64,000 nt of DNA from Candidatus Poribacteria bacterium (GCA_963665235.2 CAXXLX010000001.1:576001-640000), one strand, 5' to 3'. Positions 22,831 to 31,199 are shown, counted from the stretch's first letter. Translations and numbers: made by a program. The notes: generated from the letters alone by a model not told the origin.

Positions 22831-24781
22831 TGAGAATTGCATCCACGTCGTAGACACAGCCGCCCCAGGTGCCGCCGCCGACCGCTTGGAGAGCTGCCCA
22901 CAATCTTGTATCATCTGGCAACGCTGCGTCAGATGCAAGGTCGGGGCGCGGCTGTCGTTCTGCTAATACCTGTTCCCCTGCTTTAGCTCCAAAGTGTTCG
23001 CTGCCGTGTCCGACAAGGTCGATGCTTCCTAACAGCTGCCGCGTGTCAATCTGAATCTGGATGATGTCGCCATCGAGCACCTTTCCGATGGGACCGCCCG
23101 CAAGTGCCTCCGGGCCGACATGTCCAATACACGCGCCGGTTGAAACACCCGAGAAACGGGCATCTGTAATCAGGGCGATGTGTTTGCCGAACGAGAGGTG
23201 TTTGAGGGCGGAGGTCAGTTGATAAACCTCCTCCATGCCTGTGCCCAGTGGTCCACGGCAACACAACACCATAATATCGCCCGGCTTGATGTTTACTGTG
23301 CCTTGTCCTTTAAGCGTCTGTATTGCATCAGATTCCCGAACGAAGACACGCGCGGGGCCTGTCATTCGATATACACCGTCGGCATCGACGACGCTTGGGT
23401 CAATGGCGGTGCTTTTAATGACCGAGCCCTCTGGTGCAAGATTGCCGCGCGGAAATGTGACGGTGCTTGTTAATCCCGCTGCCTTCGCGGCATCCGGGTT
23501 CAAAATAACCTCATCTGGGGCAACCCCATCCCTTTCTGTTAGCAATTCTCGGACGCGTGCGCGCCGTTCAGAGGTTTCCCACCAATCCAAGTTTCTACCG
23601 AGAGGTTCACCTGTTGCTGTCAGCACGTCTTCGTTGAGGAGCCCGCCCAATTGCCGTAGGTGTAGCATGACTTCAGGCACACCGCCCGCAAGAAAAACAC
23701 GGATTGTCGGATGCCCTATCGGTCCGTTCGGTAGGACATCGACGAGACGCGGCACGCGCTGATTGACTTCAGTCCACTCATCTACCGTTGGACGTTGGAG
23801 CCCCGCAGCGTGAGCAATGGCAGGAATATGCAGCAGGAGATTCGTAGAACCACCAAACGCTGCATGCACGACCATGGCGTTCCGAATCGCTGCCGATGTG
23901 ACGATATCCGCCATCGTTAACCCCTTCGCTGCCAGATTGACGACTGCCCTTGCAGAACGCAGGCCCATATCCGACCAGATGTTCTGTCCTGATGGGGCTA
24001 ACGCTGTATGTGTTAAACTCATCCCTAACGCCTCGCCGACAACCTGTGACGTTGCGGCGGTTCCGAGAAATTGACAGCCGCCGCCGGGGGTTGCACAGGC
24101 TCGGCATCCCATATCGGCTGCGTCTTGTAGACTTATTTCACCGTGTGCGAACCGTGCCCCGATGGTCTGAATTTTTCCTGCATCCTCACCCGTAGTGGGC
24201 GGCAGCGTTACGCCGCCAGGGACGAGAACTGCCGGTAATTCACGCATTGAGGCGAGTGCCATCATCATTGCGGGCAACCCTTTATCGCAGGTGGCAACAC
24301 CGACTACCCCTTTTCGGGTCGGAAGGGAACGGATGAGTCTTCTGAAAATCTGGGCTGCATCGTTACGATAGGCGAGGCTATCCATCATGCCGACGGTGCC
24401 TTGTGTTCTGCCGTCACACGGGTCGGAGCAGTAGCCAGCAAACGGAATTGCTGCCTTTTTGAGTTCATGGGCGACCGCTTGCATGAGAAGACCGACCTCC
24501 CAATGGCCGGTGTGATACCCCAATGCAATGGGGCTGCCATCCGGTGCGCGGATACCGCCCTGTGTGCTGAGAATCAGGAATTCTTCTCTACGCAGTTCTG
24601 TCGGTGCCCATCCCATTGCGGTGTTGTGGCTCAATCCGAAGATATCGCCACTCGGTCGCGTCAGGAGCATCTCTGCTGTGAGGGGTAGACTGCCTTCGGG
24701 TCCAGCGGCGTGGGTTTGGATGTCATAGATGTCGCTGTCGCCGGTTTCTAAAATGTCGGTGTAGTTAATCGATTTTGCCAT
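22817..24781 (-). CDS. YjhG/YagF-family D-xylonate dehydratase (IlvD/Edd family)
   Basis: [37 protein letters not shown]. Confidence 0.92.
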
Positions 24782-24836
24782 GATGTGTTCTCTTTTCTAT
24801 CTATAGGATTTTCAACCGCTGAGTCGCTTTTATCCA

Positions 24837-25250
24837 TCAATTTAACCATTCCCAAAGTGTTAGATAATCATCGCGCCTGAGAAAATCTTCGCGCATCTCT
24901 GTGTCAATATTTATGCCCCAGACCTGGATGTACTCAGATTCATTTTCCCCAATCTGAATATGCAACCTCCGTTTTTCTTCGGACCATTCTACAGTTACAT
25001 AACCACTTTCATCACTAGAGATAAATGGCGTAAGCCAAGAATGTCCGGCAGAAATGATTGAATCAAAAAAATCTTCTATGAGAGATTTAGCATGGACTAG
25101 GGTTAACTCGGTCGGCTTTTTGGAGTCGTATCCATCCCAATTGTCTTCCCGTTGCGCTAGGACATCAAATCGCTCCGATAGCTTACGTTTTTGATGAGAT
25201 AGGAGCGTTGCCCCTAAGAATTCGGCGCGGTTTCTATTTGGAGTAGTCAA
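24837..25250 (-). CDS. NWDGY-domain protein, paralog of the C-terminal domain of 27285..28016; original 5' end (ATG 26733) separated by an IS
   Basis: Identical 27-aa block SERFDVLAQREDNWDGYDSKKPTELTL; removing the IS restores MSKPEKIT(T)PNRN. Confidence 0.8.
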   Translation of the reverse strand: MTTPNRNRAEFLGATLLSHQKRKLSERFDVLAQREDNWDGYDSKKPTELTLVHAKSLIEDFFDSIISAGHSWLTPFISSDESGYVTVEWSEEKRRLHIQIGENESEYIQVWGINIDTEMREDFLRRDDYLTLWEWLN

Positions 25251-25400
25251 CTACCCAAGCCTAAAGACTTGTGCCTATTAAGAGCATCGAACAGCGTTAA
25301 CTGTACCGCGTCTATTAAACCTTTGTCTCGTGCTTCGTTCTTGTTTCTCGCTTCATAGAGGGTGGTAACCCACCGCTCTCCACGAAAGGCAGCAGCTGCC
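25226..25400 (-). ncRNA. Predicted omegaRNA overlapping the tnpB 3' end; guide from flank UACUCCAAAUAGAAACCGCG
   Basis: Known TnpB architecture applied to the right-end position; 5' boundary approximate. Confidence 0.55.
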
Positions 25401-26509
25401 TTAAAAAGAATGTTTAATGCAGCGTTGTGGTCTCGGTCTAAAGACGTGCCACAGAAACTGCAATTAAAGGTCCGTATCGCCAGAGAGAGTTTCTTTGGCG
25501 ATTTCTGACCGCAACTTGAGCAGATTTGCGAAGTGTTTCTTGGATCAACTTGGTGGAAATGGAAACCGTCTCTTTCGGCTATATTTCCGCACCACTCAAA
25601 GAAGGTTGCCCAAGATGCATCGCTAATACTCTTGCTGAGGTGTTTGTTCTTGACCATGTTAGAAACGCTTAAGGCCTCTGCCACTAATACACTGTTTTTC
25701 TTGTGGTGGTAGAGTTTGTAGATGAGTTTACCAATAAAGTCTTTGCGTCTGTTCGCGGTTCGCTCATGGTGTAATGATAGTTTGTGTTGTTGTTTCTTTG
25801 AACGGTTGCTACCTTTTTTCTTTCGAGAAAGGTCTTTGGAATGTTTTTGGGTTAAACCTTCTGCTTGACGATACCAGCGTGGGTTGTTCTCTTTTTCGCC
25901 TTCGGATGTTGTCAGATAATGCATCGTTCCCATATCAACAGCTATAGCAGTTGTTGGGTCAACCTTCGGTGTGTCCGTGAGTTCACAGGTAATATGAGCA
26001 TACCAGCCACTTGCTTTTTTTACCAGCGTAACGCCTTTAGCATCGCCTTGAAGCGGGCGGTGCATATAGATTTTGACTTCGCCAAGTTTGGGGACTTTCA
26101 AACGGTCGTGTTTCCATGCTGTTTCGCGTATCGGATGCTCGCGAATACCTTTGGACTTGCGGAGTTTCCACGACATAGACTTTATGCTTTTTCTGTGCCT
26201 TGGATACCCTTTTTTCGCAGTGCCTTCTTTGCAGCGTCTATAGAAACCGTCGAAGGCTTTATCGTTACGTTCCAAAGCACAGACTTGCATATCTTGTGGG
26301 ACTTCGCGAAAGTCTTCGTATTTTTTACGCGCAACCGTCAACTTCCGTTGTTGGTCGTAGCAAGAAACTTTTTCGCGTTCCGTTTCCCAAGCGACCTTGC
26401 GATCATGGCGAGCAGAGTTCTGAAGTTCACACAAATGGGCAAGCCAGTCTAATAATGTTGTTTCCTGTGTTTTCGTAGGATACACAGGGTATCTGAAAGT
26501 TAGTTTCAT
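25247..26509 (-). CDS. tnpB: RNA-guided endonuclease TnpB
   Basis: FRYPVYPT N-terminus; RuvC D (AVDMG), E (LVAE), D (DRDHNAA); CSSC/CSFC Zn finger. Confidence 0.95.
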   Translation of the reverse strand: MKLTFRYPVYPTKTQETTLLDWLAHLCELQNSARHDRKVAWETEREKVSCYDQQRKLTVARKKYEDFREVPQDMQVCALERNDKAFDGFYRRCKEGTAKKGYPRHRKSIKSMSWKLRKSKGIREHPIRETAWKHDRLKVPKLGEVKIYMHRPLQGDAKGVTLVKKASGWYAHITCELTDTPKVDPTTAIAVDMGTMHYLTTSEGEKENNPRWYRQAEGLTQKHSKDLSRKKKGSNRSKKQQHKLSLHHERTANRRKDFIGKLIYKLYHHKKNSVLVAEALSVSNMVKNKHLSKSISDASWATFFEWCGNIAERDGFHFHQVDPRNTSQICSSCGQKSPKKLSLAIRTFNCSFCGTSLDRDHNAALNILFKAAAAFRGERWVTTLYEARNKNEARDKGLIDAVQLTLFDALNRHKSLGLGS

Positions 26510-26605
26510 GGTATATCAAGTATCAAGCGTTTATCCCCTTCTTAGTGGGAAGCGGACACATTACCAAGCGGTAACGCTAAGAATGTCCGCCAACTTGACA
26601 CTCTA

Positions 26606-26634
26606 ATTATACCATGTTTTGGGGTCAATGTCAA
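26606..26634 (-). promoter_or_regulatory. Sigma70-type promoter of tnpB
   Basis: TTGACA-17 nt-TATAAT on the minus strand. Confidence 0.75.
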
Positions 26635-26830
26635 GTTAAAAACGATGTACCAACGGGGTTAGCGGGCTTTCCTCCCAAAGCTAAAGCATTGGGCTTCTCG
26701 CCCGAAGAAGGTGATTTTTTCCGGTTTGCTCATAACGGCATACTCTCAAATTTTTGAGGTTGTAGGTCAGGGCCATCTTCAATAGAGACAGCCCGTATAT
26801 TTAGAGGTACAAACTAGCGGAGTGCTTGTT

Positions 26831-27295
26831 TCACCTTGTCCCGGGTTCTAATGTCCATCCGTTTTTAGTAGCTAGCTTAGCAAGTGCAACCCGAAGCTTT
26901 CTAAATGTCTTACCTTTCTTGCTATCTGTGCCAAGAAATTCGGGATTCACAATAATTTGTGAGTGGGCGGAATTTTCAGGAGTAGGAGCATAGATAATGT
27001 CTACAGTGTGAACCGTATTTTTATCCTCATTTTTTGTTTCCACCTCTTTTATTGCGCGAACATCATGAGCTATAAGACTAACAATACCATCCGTTTCTTG
27101 TAACCTAGAGAGAGAAGGATCGAATCCTCTTAGTTTCGCTCTATCTACGGACGGTTCTTTATTCCTATCATTAAAAGCTGCGGACCGAATTATAAGTTTT
27201 CCTCTGTCAAAAAAGTACTCTTCAGCTACTGATTCGCCTCGGACACTTCGGTATAGCACCTCATTGTCCTGTACGGGGTCGTTTTTATCCATCAA
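26831..27295 (-). CDS. Putative ADP-ribosyltransferase-fold toxin (CmdT-like motif pattern)
   Basis: VLYRSV, SAAF, PSVDR, GIVSL, PENSAHSQI; 154 aa; start overlaps the stop of the upstream gene. Confidence 0.6.
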   Translation of the reverse strand: MMDKNDPVQDNEVLYRSVRGESVAEEYFFDRGKLIIRSAAFNDRNKEPSVDRAKLRGFDPSLSRLQETDGIVSLIAHDVRAIKEVETKNEDKNTVHTVDIIYAPTPENSAHSQIIVNPEFLGTDSKKGKTFRKLRVALAKLATKNGWTLEPGTR

Positions 27296-28016
27296 GTAAC
27301 CATCCCCAAAGTGTTAAATAATCATCGCGCCTGAGAGAATCTTCGCGCATCTCTGTGTCAATATTCGTTCCCCATACTTGGAGATATTCCGCCACATTTT
27401 CTCCTATCTGAAGATGTAATTCTCTTTCTCCTTCATACCATTCTACAATTACATTACCATCTTCATCGCTAGAAATGAAAGGCACAACCCACGGATATCC
27501 AGCTACAACGATAGCCTCTAATATTCCTTCAATAAGAAGTTTTGCACGCGCTAGAGTTAGCTCGGTTGGCTTTTTGGAGTCATATCCATCCCAGTTATCC
27601 TCCCGTTGCGCTAGGACATCAAATCGCTCCGATATTTTATGTCTTTGCAAGTATAGGATAATTTTCTTCCTGAATTGCTCTTCGACTACATCATTAGTTG
27701 TGGATTCTCGCGACTGAGGAAATGCGAATGTATCCAATCGCATAGTTGTTACAGTTCTGTCGATAAGTTTATACGACTCTACTGCTTTAATATCTGCAGC
27801 CGCCGATTCTCTTCGATGAGAAATTTGGGAGGACTTTTCCTCAATAGTCAGCCGAGCAATTGTTTCAGCAAGGAAGAATAGATTTGGTATCCCCAGAGGA
27901 ATATTAGTACCTTCATGACTTCGATCCTGCAAGGGCTCCCCGTAAGCTATCGGTGATACTCCACTGGAAGATATTCCAGCAGTGATTCCTGAATATATCG
28001 CATTTTGTAAGGACAT
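27285..28016 (-). CDS. Hypothetical protein: low-complexity N-terminus plus NWDGY domain (putative antitoxin); start uncertain
   Basis: NWDGYDSKKP...PFISSDEDG.V.VEW; lies between the TIGR04255-like and toxin genes. Confidence 0.7.
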   Translation of the reverse strand: MSLQNAIYSGITAGISSSGVSPIAYGEPLQDRSHEGTNIPLGIPNLFFLAETIARLTIEEKSSQISHRRESAAADIKAVESYKLIDRTVTTMRLDTFAFPQSRESTTNDVVEEQFRKKIILYLQRHKISERFDVLAQREDNWDGYDSKKPTELTLARAKLLIEGILEAIVVAGYPWVVPFISSDEDGNVIVEWYEGERELHLQIGENVAEYLQVWGTNIDTEMREDSLRRDDYLTLWGWLLDG

Positions 28017-28704
28017 CCTCTATTTCCTTCGTGTTGCTTTCAGAGTAGCAATCTACATCGATTATATACGATTTCTCATTAGCTAAGTGTTTGTGTCCGA
28101 AATTTCCAGATACTTCAGCCAGAGCATGAGCCACATTTGCTTTTACGTCTCCATCTCTGAATAAAGATACTTTTTGTAAAATATCGATATTTCTTGCTAT
28201 AGGTGTTGTTAATTCCGGAAAGATATGTTCCGGAACAAAAACCTCAACCTCTTGTTCCACGCGGGGCAGAAAGGTTTTATTGGCTATATCTCGATACCTA
28301 AGACCGAGGCGAGTAAAATAGGAAGGTTCATAGATTTCACTAAATAACCGTAAAACCTTTTCCAATCTTTCTCTAAAATCCGCATAATTTCTGTAATTTC
28401 CGCTACAAGTAAGAGCAATAAAATTCTTTGCTAAGGAGACTTTCCAATCTTTTTTTTCTGAAAAAAAATGGAACACTTTAGTTGTAGAAACTAGTTCCTC
28501 TAGCTCTTTAGGCACATTAGATGCTAAAATAGGCATATCTATATCTGAGGCAAGTTCTGGGTACCCTTCCTTCCGTAAAATATCCTGAAATTTGACTGGC
28601 CTCTCCTCGGAAATTCTCATGATTTCAGGAAAGCGGGCCTGAAATAAAACGTCAAATAGGATATTATGTTCATATTCTACCTTTTCGAATTCCTTAAAAT
28701 GCAT
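27913..28704 (-). CDS. TIGR04255 family protein
   Basis: DVLFQARFP, WKVSL..NFIAL, Y..F.ERLEKVL, RLGLRYRD, YIIDVD, FQWSIT pattern. Confidence 0.75.
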   Translation of the reverse strand: MHFKEFEKVEYEHNILFDVLFQARFPEIMRISEERPVKFQDILRKEGYPELASDIDMPILASNVPKELEELVSTTKVFHFFSEKKDWKVSLAKNFIALTCSGNYRNYADFRERLEKVLRLFSEIYEPSYFTRLGLRYRDIANKTFLPRVEQEVEVFVPEHIFPELTTPIARNIDILQKVSLFRDGDVKANVAHALAEVSGNFGHKHLANEKSYIIDVDCYSESNTKEIEDVLTKCDIFRNHCWNIFQWSITDSLRGALAGSKS

Positions 28705-28928
28705 GGGTTAAAAACCTCAGTTAACTGAATGTTAATAGAAACAAACGTTTCTCACGGATATTTTGAGGGTGTTACCTAAAAAATAATATTGCACGGCCGA
28801 ACGCAACCGTTTGCGCACAGACCTGACGTAAAATTAGGAACTCGCGTAAAATCGGACATGAAACCGTTCACAAAACCGACCGCGACCGTGTACACCGGCC
28901 CCTCCCATAAATTAACGAAAATATTATA

Positions 28929-29234
28929 ACGTGAGTTTAAAAAAAGTTTTCGCCCTCAACGTTCTCTGGTAGTTTTAGCAAAAAACAGCACAAACTAAAT
29001 GAAGATTAATTTTTAAAATCGGTAATTTCGGAACGGGTGATAAATCACCCTATTACAAACGCGTTCAGTATTCGGGCAAACAGTTTCCCGCTCCTCTGGG
29101 CAATTCATTGCCCATCGAATACCAAAATATTTATTTAAACTTCATAAAATTTATGCTACAATTATACCGCTTTTTTCGTCTTTTCGCCATCAAAAGTGTT
29201 TAGTACCAACGAATATTTATTGTCAAGCTCACGT
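28929..29234. mobile_element. Family B MITE (inverted relative to 4836-4986) with a nested element
   Basis: TIR ACGTGAGTTT/CAAGCTCACGT; internal sequence is the reverse complement of the 4836 copy. Confidence 0.75.
29000..29144. mobile_element. Nested ~145-bp MITE inserted in the REP hairpin loop of the host MITE
   Basis: Ends TGAAGATTAA/TTAAACTTCA flanked by TAAA on both sides. Confidence 0.65.
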
Positions 29235-29282
29235 TAATTATAATTATAGTATATTTTACAAAAAAAGTCAAACTTTTTTTCT

Positions 29283-30118
29283 GGGTGTGTAAAGTTTTTG
29301 TACAAAACCGGTGTAAATGTTACACTTTCGACACAAAGTGTAACATTTGGCTCTCGGTTCTGAATGTGTCTGAACGCACGCCACGCATAGCTTTGTAAGC
29401 CGTTTTGTCCTCTCTCTTTCGCAACACAAAAAAAACAAAGTGTGTCATTTCAAACGCCCATTTCGGGTATCTGTTCTGACAACTTTTCTTACCGTTCCAC
29501 CGCCTACTTTTTGACACCGGGGCCGGTGAAAATGTTACACTTTCGACACAAAGTGTAACATTTGGTTCTCGGTGTTGCATGTGCCTGAACGCCCGCCCTG
29601 TCTATGTTTGTAAGCGTTTTTGTCCTCTCTTTTTCGCAACAGAAAAAAACGCGTTGTGTCATTTCGACCGCCGATTTCGGGTATCAGTTCATCGGAGTTT
29701 TCTTATCGTTCTGCCGCCTACTTTTTTGTGCGGTTTGTGTGTAAATGTTACACTTTTGACACAAAGTGTAACATTTGGTTTTGGGTGTTTCCTGTGTGTG
29801 AACGCCCGCCCCGTCTATGTTTGTAAGCGTTTTTGTCCTCTCTTTTTCGCAACAGAAAAAAACGCGTTGTGTCATTTCAACTGCCGATTTCGGGTATCTG
29901 TCCTGACCACTTTTCTTACTGTTTTGCCTCCTACTTTTTGACACCGTTCCGGTGCCAATGTTACACTTTTGACACACGCTATCGATGTCTGGTCAGGTGA
30001 GTTGCAAAACACACCGCTTGCCTCCCAAAAATGTTTTGGGGTGCTGTTATATTAGTTGCGAACTGTTCTATTTTTCTTCAGAAAAAATATCGCAGCCGTA
30101 CAAAAACTTTACACACCC
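29283..30118. mobile_element. 836-bp non-coding element with 21-bp perfect TIRs and internal ~214-bp tandem units
   Basis: GGGTGTGTAAAGTTTTTGTAC at 29283 and its exact reverse complement at 30098-30118; palindromes at 29315, 29530, 29743 and a half copy at 29957. Confidence 0.8.
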
Positions 30119-30119
30119 C

Positions 30120-30148
30120 TTGACAATTCCAGAAAAATACGGTAAAAT
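30120..30148 (+). promoter_or_regulatory. Sigma70-type promoter
   Basis: TTGACA-17 nt-TAAAAT. Confidence 0.65.
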
Positions 30149-30239
30149 ACAAACAGAATAAGAGATTAAAGCGCGTTCTACGATTTAACGCGGACCACAC
30201 TTACGAAACCACTTCATCTATTTGACTACGGAGGATTTC

Positions 30240-31199
30240 ATGAAACTATTTTCTAGAACACTCATCCTAATCACAGCTGCCCTGTTTACAGTTTACATGG
30301 TCGGTTGTGGAGCTGATGAGGATGCTGACACAGCACTGTTTATGAGTGCTACGCCAGCTGATGGAGAGATTGAAGCAAACGGAAGCATCACGGTGACCTT
30401 CGACAAAACCCCCGCAAATTTTAAAGCAAGTGCCGGGAAAAAGGTCACTGTTAGCGGCCAAATTGCCACTATTGAGGGGCCCTTCACACCGGGCGAGCTT
30501 GAACTCACTATCACCTGGGAAAATGGCGAACAAACGCTCAAATACACTGTCCTTGATGGAGATATTGACCGTCCTAAAGTCATAGGCGGGACTATCAGAA
30601 ATGGGGATGACGCAGTTGAATCTAAACAGATTAACGCTGATGGCCGAATCGAAATTGAGTTTGACGAGAACGTAACCGGACAGGTTGCACTGCAAACCGC
30701 AGTAGGTGAACCCCTCGGATGGTTCGGTAAAGTTGAAGGCAATAAAGCTGTCCTTGAATTTATCGACGGTGAAGAACTTGATACTGGGACCGATTACATC
30801 ATCAAGGGACGAGTCACAGATGCTGATGGTAATACAGCAAGCTTCACTGTTAACTTTTTAACCGCGGGACCCCCGCGCAGCCCGTTTGTTGTGACCGATA
30901 CGTCGTTTGACCGCCTTGTGCTGCGAGCTGAACTACCGGTAGTGGTTGCATTTGGAGCGGTCTGGTGAGCAATCTGCCAACAAATGGAGCCAGTTGTCTC
31001 CAAAGTTGCAACAGAATACCGGGATAGATTCTCTATCGCGAATATGGACATTGATAAGAGCTCGAAGACATATCCTAAATATGGCATTAATGCAATTCCA
31101 ACATACCTCGTATTTAAAGAGGGGAAGCTAGTGCTACGTTTCAGAGGTTTAACTCCAGAGGCCGATTTCGTAAAGAAAGTTCTTGGAGCGATAAGATAG
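30240..31199 (+). CDS. Lipoprotein with Ig-like domains and C-terminal thioredoxin; probable selenoprotein (UGA at 30966-30968)
   Basis: Lipobox MVGC; ORFs 30222..30968 and 30984..31199 share a frame; AFGAVW-TGA-AIC gives WUAIC; cis-Pro motif AIPT. Confidence 0.85.

Follow-up and report, generated by a model that had tools for sequence, protein, structure and literature searches.

We analyzed a candidate toxin-antitoxin-like cassette in a stretch of 64,000 nucleotides (nt) from Candidatus Poribacteria bacterium (GCA_963665235.2 CAXXLX010000001.1:576001-640000). This whole stretch is referred to as the window, and all coordinates are counted from its first letter. The cassette consists of three overlapping open reading frames (ORFs), all on the minus strand.

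27913..28704, minus strand: gene 1, TIGR04255 family protein, 263 amino acids (aa), head gene of the cassette
27285..28016, minus strand: gene 2, NWDGY-domain protein, 243-aa ORF, proposed antitoxin
26831..27295, minus strand: gene 3, protein with a predicted ADP-ribosyltransferase (ART)-type fold, 154 aa, proposed toxin

A preliminary description, made from the sequence alone, had noticed at this place an AT-richer operon of overlapping genes set among metabolic genes, and both observations hold. The GC content is 0.36-0.43 over 26750-29250, as compared with 0.50-0.57 in the flanks, and the flanking genes are metabolic or housekeeping ones (IlvD/Edd dehydratase, MBL-fold, VanZ, and URO-D proteins). 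The source genome (5.3 Mb) has one gene 3, one TIGR04255 gene, and two NWDGY genes. No RNA family in Rfam is matched in 24000-30500.

The start of gene 2 should be noted. Genes 2 and 3 overlap by 11 nt, and the ORFs of genes 1 and 2 overlap by 104 nt (27913-28016). The third-position entropy within the latter overlap (1.05-1.34) is not clearly lowered in comparison with that elsewhere (0.88-1.41). Since dual coding of the overlap has no support from the entropy, we take the later start at 27932, as in the public gene call (P0121, 27932-27285), and the real gene 2 probably starts there and encodes 215 aa. In every TIGR04255 subfamily-1 cassette of the window and the loci L004-L042, those from other phyla included, the NWDGY frame remains open and has a start codon that precedes the TIGR04255 stop by 101-125 nt; in subfamily-2 cassettes, the two genes overlap by only 13-19 nt.

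Conserved residues and predicted fold of gene 3

Gene 3 has 198 homologues at 55-76% identity, all of which are annotated as hypothetical, and a profile search extends the family to 688 clusters at E ≤ 1e-3. Searches of gene 3 against Pfam and NCBIfam give no match and those against PADLOC no significant one, and a Pfam scan of 121 diverse family members gives 0 matches. Sequence and profile searches against the PDB give no significant match to any solved structure. In the ESM Atlas, the protein is found in unnamed clusters only, and the nearest named one, DUF6098 at 0.92, is a weak lead.

The LYR...SV...NxAH pattern noticed earlier in the last gene is present as L14-Y15-R16, S49-V50, and N108-x-A110-H111 and lies on conserved columns of the family. 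Among 38 close homologues, L14, Y15, S49, V50, N108, A110, and H111 are invariant and R16 is conserved in at least 90%. In the alignment of the 121 diverse members, F41 and H111 never vary, and E12, R16, A40, D43, P48, S49, V50, R52, G70, R80, P104, and N108 are each conserved in at least 90%. The gene 3 protein of the window has every residue conserved in this diverse alignment.

The structural model built from the 38 close homologues has a predicted local distance difference test score (pLDDT) of 48, and that built from the 121 diverse homologues has a pLDDT of 95.8 and a predicted template modeling score of 0.90. An exhaustive structural search places KptA first (9ld3_A; Z 7.8, root-mean-square deviation (rmsd) 2.9 over 89 residues). 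Below it stand AvrPphF ORF2 (Z 6.0), mouse Tpt1 (Z 5.7), TreX (Z 5.2), diphtheria toxin (Z 4.9), Runella Tpt1 (Z 4.8), Tse2 (Z 4.6), Scabin (Z 4.4), and DarT (Z 4.3, with DarT structures spanning Z 4.1-4.3). A second structural look gives six KptA/Tpt1 entries at Z 7.4-7.6 and rmsd 2.8-3.1 over 86-93 residues. The KptA/Tpt1 matches are always located on the NAD+-binding C-terminal lobe (chain residues 85-180 only), with an identity of 9-12%. Entries of the ART superfamily make up about 29 of the first 36 structural rows, 23 by title and six by our own assignment.

Two results count against an assignment from the scores. Every Z is below 8, a range in which, by the warning of the tool, a match may reflect a common arrangement only, and a Foldseek search of the model against the PDB gives nothing at E ≤ 0.001. 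We accept the ART-like fold because the list of matches is uniform in make-up, and not on account of any single score. Judging from this model, gene 3 has an ART-like fold, as the preliminary description had anticipated for the last gene, with KptA/Tpt1 at the top of the list (Z 7.4-7.8) and mostly ART toxins after it.

In the model, R16 lies on the first strand (13-18), S49 on a strand that leads into a helix, and N108 and H111 at the start of the strand 111-117. The order of R16, S49, and H111 may thus be that of the three ART motifs. A published account gives H-H-h, H-Y-[EDQ], and R-S-E as the active-site signatures of ARTs (PMC9503650). Gene 3 agrees in full with none of the three triads, though R16 and S49 are conserved in at least 90%. 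The family alignment has no conserved Glu at the third motif, where N108 and the invariant H111 are found, and this tells against an ART toxin. Since the signatures are not fully matched, we call the fold ART-like and only infer the chemistry.

The best structural matches, seven KptA/Tpt1 entries at rmsd 2.8-3.1, are to an RNA 2'-phosphotransferase, that is, to an RNA-repair enzyme and not a toxin. They bring in an alternative in which the cassette encodes a non-toxic, NAD+-dependent enzyme of two or three subunits. Gene 3 would be a KptA/Tpt1-like transferase that acts on RNA ends or produces a soluble ADP-ribose derivative, the NWDGY protein would bind the substrate or regulate, and TIGR04255 would be an accessory. 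The H-H-h clade of KptA is described in the same account as serving RNA repair and soluble ADP-ribose products (PMC9503650), which suits such an enzyme. However, gene 3 lacks the RNA-binding N-terminal lobe of KptA/Tpt1. It also differs from the H-H-h clade of KptA in that the first two presumed motif positions are occupied by R and S. The genetic evidence on this enzyme is given in the next section.

Linkage and decay of the NWDGY and gene 3 pair

For the gene 2 protein, 182 homologues are found. Its N-terminal extension is variable, and its C-terminal NWDGY domain (~135 aa) is conserved. The protein has no Pfam or NCBIfam match, and sequence and profile searches against the PDB give nothing significant. 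Two homologues (P0251 and P0252) are single-chain NWDGY-gene 3 fusions.

We compared 42 related loci, of which 31 are labeled Poribacteria and 11 have other labels, namely Nitrospirales/Nitrospirae (5), Nitrospinota, Methylococcales/Methyloglobulus (2), Thermodesulfobacteriota, and Betaproteobacteria or uncultured bacterium. In 41 of the 42, the gene-3 match has an NWDGY ORF as its immediate upstream neighbor. Being small, adjacent, co-directional, and kept together as a pair, the two genes have the organization of a type II toxin-antitoxin pair. TIGR04255 genes were called with a hidden Markov model of both TIGR04255 subfamilies; an intact one lies directly upstream in 21 loci, and truncated copies are present in 2 more. 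Among the loci not labeled Poribacteria, it is intact in 10 of 11 and truncated in the 11th, L031. The two-gene form without TIGR04255 accounts for 19 loci and is seen only in Poribacteria. Across the phylum, 73 of 151 genomes have a TIGR04255 match and 66 of 151 a match to the gene-3 family, often as several fragments, and a long NWDGY gene adjoins downstream in 23 of the best 30 TIGR04255 loci. The linkage of the three genes suggested by the window therefore recurs in other genomes.

Around the 42 chromosomal loci, the 55 flanking ORFs comprise housekeeping genes (MutL, Maf, Mrp/ParA, AdoHcy hydrolase, TruD, and MTHFR) and a Uma2 gene. In most Poribacteria loci, the cassette is at apparently the same chromosomal place, judging from ORF sizes and one Pfam scan: an ORF of ~890 aa, a Uma2-type gene of ~188 aa, the cassette, and a dehydratase-sized ORF of ~655 aa. 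Since the content of the site varies (two-gene, three-gene, tandem, and decayed forms), it behaves like a local hotspot.

Gene 3 decays beside an intact NWDGY gene in seven modules. It is deleted in the second module of the window, frameshifted in L017b, interrupted by a stop codon in L030b and by an insertion of ~950 nt in L038, shortened by an internal deletion in L033, and reduced to residues 1-121 in L035 and to residues 1-91 in L042a. The opposite is found in three loci: the NWDGY gene is truncated in L034 and frameshifted in L037, each beside a near-full gene 3, and in L031 it is replaced by an IS3-type insertion beside an apparently intact gene 3. The asymmetry, together with the orphan NWDGY genes, would suit a toxin with its antidote, and the three counter-examples weaken this argument.

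The evidence on the enzyme introduced above is divided at this point. The NWDGY-gene 3 fusions would equally suit an enzyme of two subunits, the flanks are housekeeping genes, the place beside the dehydratase gene looks syntenic in Poribacteria, and L031 retains gene 3 without NWDGY. On the other hand, the spread is patchy, modules occur as tandem paralogues, gene 3 decays and leaves orphan NWDGY genes, the GC content is lowered, and accessory sites of phages and plasmids carry related cassettes. Patchiness, decay, and mobile carriage are habits of selfish or defence modules and not of repair enzymes. Furthermore, no 2H, macro, or ligase partner is found in the flanks scanned. We regard the non-toxic enzyme as quite unlikely.

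The second module of the window lies downstream of the cassette. The features around the cassette are as follows.

25247..26509, minus strand: TnpB, IS200/IS605-type RNA-guided nuclease gene, between modules 1 and 2 and outside the system
24837..25250, minus strand: second NWDGY gene, of the short form (137 aa), an antitoxin-like orphan in the degraded module 2
24823..24840, minus strand: 18-nt remnant of the gene-3 start, second copy, a repeat 94% identical to 27278-27295
29283..30118, no strand assigned: element resembling a miniature inverted-repeat transposable element (MITE), upstream of the cassette, with inverted ends and tandem units
29243..29271, minus strand: promoter-like site, 11 of 12, ~540 nt upstream of gene 1, a consensus match only

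The short NWDGY protein is 67% identical to residues 106-240 of gene 2, its C-terminal half, and the two genes form a direct DNA repeat of 77% identity. This 137-aa form is the usual NWDGY form at loci without TIGR04255. All of gene 3 in module 2 but its 18-nt start is deleted, and the resulting 30-codon frame runs into the IlvD/Edd-family dehydratase gene. Thus, module 1 is intact, and module 2 has lost its toxin gene and is separated from module 1 by the TnpB insertion. The TnpB protein (26509-25247) matches NF040570 at E 7.9e-72 and the Pfam families OrfB_IS605 and Cas12f1-like_TNB. A sigma-70-like promoter site matching 12 of 12 positions with a TG extension lies just upstream of tnpB (26634-26606). 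The region 25247-26830 is a TnpB-only IS200/IS605-type element, and the orphan NWDGY gene starts in overlap with the stop of tnpB. A TnpB gene with only distant similarity to this one likewise lies just upstream of a short NWDGY gene in locus L013 (3878-4990).

The MITEs that had been described as flanking the operon are found on one side. The upstream element (29283-30118) has perfect 21-nt inverted ends enclosing three 213-nt tandem units; the downstream side holds TnpB, the short NWDGY gene, and the gene-3 remnant instead. The 21-nt ends occur 223 times genome-wide (≤2 mismatches) against 0 for a control pattern, and the 213-nt unit has 77 genome matches spread over three contigs. Each 213-nt unit of this high-copy family holds a 34-nt palindrome. 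The promoter-like site at 29243-29271 is possibly the operon promoter; its match is weak by itself, as the promoter scan gives 11 sites against 8.6 expected in shuffles. Further upstream, 30222-30968 is a 248-aa Big_5/CopC-like ORF, followed in another frame by a 71-aa ORF (30984-31199). The latter matches only positions 36-100 of a thioredoxin profile and is possibly part of a frameshifted or split thioredoxin-domain gene.

Arrays of this kind, tandem modules with an orphan NWDGY gene, occur in the window and in L005, L017, L030, L038, and L042. They could also be read as polymorphic-toxin/immunity arrays for contact-dependent competition, in which gene 3 would encode a toxin module for export, with immunity conferred by the NWDGY genes, the orphans included. 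The structural neighbors of gene 3 include the ART toxins TreX, TreTu, Tse2, and Tne2 of Rhs/type VI secretion systems, and a chaperone gene of the type VI secretion type (Tla1-like) lies near a related cassette from Ralstonia. However, the immunity-like gene precedes the toxin, and nearly all of the 150 representatives listed for gene 3 are free-standing proteins of ~150 aa that have their own start and lack an N-terminal delivery domain. In addition, no Rhs, CdiA, PAAR, or VgrG genes are present among the 55 flanking ORFs. Such an array is very improbable.

TIGR04255 as the head gene of swappable cassettes

Gene 1 matches the NCBIfam family TIGR04255 with 111.9 bits (cut-off 30; E 4.2e-32) over profile positions 2-248 of 252, in agreement with its earlier identification. 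It has no Pfam or PADLOC match, and its homologues are named only TIGR04255 family protein. The proteins of this family have 250-270 aa and well-conserved blocks along the whole length, and a search for an internal repeat detected none. Sequence and profile searches against the PDB give nothing significant, and a homologue in the ESM Atlas belongs to TIGR04255 clusters only. The PADLOC models match none of seven TIGR04255 proteins except for two weak and unrelated cases (E 0.035 and 0.0044). A full-text literature search found no paper naming TIGR04255.

The layout of the cassette is found beyond the NWDGY/gene 3 pair. In all of 18 further TIGR04255 loci, two closely packed, co-directional genes follow downstream, none of them with a Pfam family. 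The downstream pairs fall into at least five types unconnected by BLAST: A, B, NWDGY/gene 3, D, and the singles L077 and L089. The third genes include the ART-like gene 3, a family with an 'SQSCD' motif, a family with a 'GLTC(S/A)T' motif, and others. TIGR04255 is therefore the constant head gene of three-gene cassettes in several phyla, of which the other two genes are swappable. With hhalign, no middle-gene type of the other cassettes matches NWDGY. Against gene 3, the third genes give a probability of 53% (E 1.4e-4) for type B, 8% for type D, and 5% for L089, and none for type A and L077. A homology of the third genes of other cassettes with gene 3, suggested by the likeness of motifs seen by eye, is only weakly backed by hhalign and was set aside.

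The presence of TIGR04255 accompanies the length of the gene 2 protein, as the preliminary description had proposed in tying the N-terminal extension to TIGR04255. Counted after subtraction of the ORF overlap, 70-197 residues (median 112; n = 20, the motif not being found in L040) precede the NWD tryptophan where TIGR04255 is intact and 23-89 residues (median 35; n = 22, of which only three exceed 47) where it is not, although the loci are kin and this correlation, to the detriment of our interpretation, stands for far fewer independent events than loci. Long extensions accompany three TIGR04255 lineages, namely subfamily 1, subfamily 2 (L008/L082/L083), and the distant L040. The extension had also been called low-complexity, which the copy in the window, inspected by eye, is not to any notable degree. 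The extensions of the long NWDGY proteins P0144, P0223, and L091 3650-4912 (388-420 aa) appear by eye to consist of about two to four tandem units of ~60 aa, and in P0122 and P0144, a portion of the NWDGY domain seems to recur at the C-terminal end. The predicted complex of TIGR04255 with the full NWDGY protein has a score of 0.01 in both of two runs, where the mark is 0.32, and this counts neither for nor against an interaction.

These observations bear on the role of gene 1. The pair may be a toxin and antitoxin while TIGR04255 acts separately, as an enzyme that reverses or completes the chemistry of the effector, as an operon regulator, or as a second effector. Its size of 250-270 aa, larger than that of a typical small chaperone, and its conservation along the whole length fit a separate role, as do the lack of likeness to SecB and the 19 loci in which the two-gene form works without it. 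However, TIGR04255 heads cassettes with mutually unrelated third genes, and a general adaptor fits this better than an enzyme reversing one chemistry. Its presence also tracks the N-terminal extension of the middle protein. A separate role is, in our estimate, unlikely.

Cassettes headed by TIGR04255 are also carried by phages and plasmids. In Burkholderia phage vB_FKKS3, TIGR04255 and two further genes are located between the integrase and portal genes and adjoin an annotated toxin/antidote pair. Six sister records of this phage match TIGR04255 at the level of the gene, the layout aside. The cos-proximal region between replication and portal genes is described as a hotspot for defence genes in P2 (PMC9122126). 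The integrase-portal site of vB_FKKS3 may, by analogy, be equivalent to this hotspot, and the cassette of this temperate phage would then occupy an accessory site of the type that harbors phage-carried defence systems. The three-gene layout is also present on the Rhizobium conjugative plasmid pCB3060_2 (L099 174-2471), where it adjoins a cluster of multiubiquitin, ThiF-type adenylyltransferase, and DUF6527 genes and an IS110 transposase gene. The layout follows an integrase gene on a conjugative plasmid of Chroococcidiopsis, where the annotation of the middle gene is that of a transcriptional regulator and a type A-like 'TQTCD' motif is present in the third gene. A Ralstonia phage record, labeled UNVERIFIED_ORG, has TIGR04255, NWDGY, and gene 3 at its very end, so that this cassette may be flanking host DNA. 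In view of the relatives on phages and plasmids, the cassette may be a bacterial self-defence or addiction module.

Proposed module and comparison with known systems

We read the cassette as a tripartite toxin-antitoxin-like module, with gene 3 as a toxin of the ART fold, the NWDGY protein as its antidote, and TIGR04255 as a partner linked to the N-terminal extension of the antidote; we find about as much ground for this as for doubt. We infer toxicity, use of NAD+, neutralization by binding, the role of TIGR04255, and any anti-phage function. Gene 3 would be a small toxin with an ART-type fold that probably uses NAD+ to modify an essential target or consumes NAD+; nucleic acid or the translation apparatus as the target is a guess. 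Gene 2 would be the antidote, whose conserved C-terminal NWDGY domain would keep the toxin inactive through direct binding. TIGR04255 would act on the variable N-terminal extension of gene 2, either stabilizing it or sensing a trigger, and its loss or diversion would free the toxin. The logic would be that of the chaperone-addicted toxin-antitoxin-chaperone (TAC) systems, realized by unrelated proteins and through an addiction segment that is N-terminal.

Besides the points already mentioned, several weigh against this tripartite module. A Pfam scan of the NWDGY protein finds no DNA-binding domain. No defence gene and no defence island are found among the 55 flanking ORFs of the chromosomal loci, and the proximity to defence islands for which the preliminary description had suggested a survey is thus not seen in the loci examined. 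PLSDB contains no plasmid with a gene-3 homologue, and the gene-3 family is present in 0 of 400 other sampled Pseudomonadota. Lastly, among the PADLOC models, PDC-M32B of the closest catalogued system, treated below, gives no match for gene 3 of the window.

More broadly, TIGR04255 might represent a widespread and promiscuous class of third component, a functional counterpart of the SecB-like chaperones that is of unrelated origin and recognizes N-terminal segments of antitoxins. It would couple many unrelated antitoxin-effector pairs, among them the ART-like, 'SQSCD'-type, and 'GLTC'-motif ones, to a shared trigger, probably a phage protein, in a family of abortive-infection defence systems on phages, plasmids, and chromosomes. 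This extension is tentative, and we hold it with more doubt than belief. In any case, a named family without an assigned function is now the constant head of swappable cassettes. If the proposal is true, the cassette would be a second, independent solution to the 'chaperone addiction' of antitoxins, gene 3 would found a new family of ART-fold toxins with an unusual R/S/H signature, and TIGR04255 would be a handle for finding many new effector families.

The preliminary description knew of no characterized system with this exact composition. This holds insofar as PADLOC finds no named system among the proteins of the window, with nothing beyond PDC-M32A and a weak HEC-01B match; it needs amendment insofar as the pair is distantly related to PDC-M32, a two-gene candidate of PADLOC-DB v2 and the closest catalogued system to the NWDGY/gene 3 pair. 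The NWDGY domain matches the C-terminal part of PDC-M32A in gene 2 (E 1.3e-5), in the orphan copy (1.6e-5), and in the fusion P0252 (5.3e-9), with only ~80-100 of 375 model positions covered. PDC-M32B is matched by 15 of 121 gene-3 family members (best E 1.6e-6), and the Ralstonia cassette matches both A and B. These matches place the pair in the same broad superfamily as PDC-M32 and are a hint of a role in defence. By the PADLOC models, the pair is a distant relative of PDC-M32 and not a member. PDC-M32 is one of '145 untested phage defence candidates' (PDCs), and PDCs are found embedded in BREX, DISARM, or type I restriction-modification systems (Payne et al., preprint 10.1101/2024.01.29.577857). 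In a literature search for PDC-M32, the sole paper naming it just lists PADLOC hits.

A small ART-fold toxin encoded beside a neutralizing partner is also the arrangement of the two-gene toxin-antitoxin systems DarTG, ParST, and MbcTA. DarG is a macrodomain protein, and ParS and MbcA are Xre/DUF2384-type proteins, whereas NWDGY has no Pfam family. To our knowledge, none of the three systems has a TIGR04255 gene. The main text of the NetFlax paper (PMC10440598), the supplements of which could list such clusters, mentions no tripartite, three-gene, or ART modules.

The likeness to CmdTAC drawn in the preliminary description must be modified in two respects. An R-S core had been taken as typical of toxins such as CmdT. 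As described, however, CmdT is a diphtheria-type ART with the H-Y-[EDQ] signature, and its chaperone CmdC is a SecB homologue (PMC11618068). The family alignment of gene 3 has neither a conserved His-Tyr-acid triad nor a conserved catalytic Glu; R16, S49, and H111 are conserved instead. The analogy of TIGR04255 with a SecB-like chaperone finds no support in sequence-profile comparison, in which an alignment of 30 TIGR04255 sequences gives a probability of 0.8% against three SecB sequences with hhalign. Since TIGR04255 has no sequence likeness to SecB, the cassette is not a classical TAC or CmdTAC system. The antitoxin extension is N-terminal and not a C-terminal ChAD, as the C-terminal end of the protein is formed by the conserved NWDGY domain. 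In addition, the gene of the third component comes first in the order. What the cassette has in common with TAC and CmdTAC is the plan: three genes, one constant component combined with varied toxin-antitoxin pairs, and an antitoxin extension that accompanies the third component. With CmdTAC in particular, it would also share an ART-fold enzyme as the toxin.

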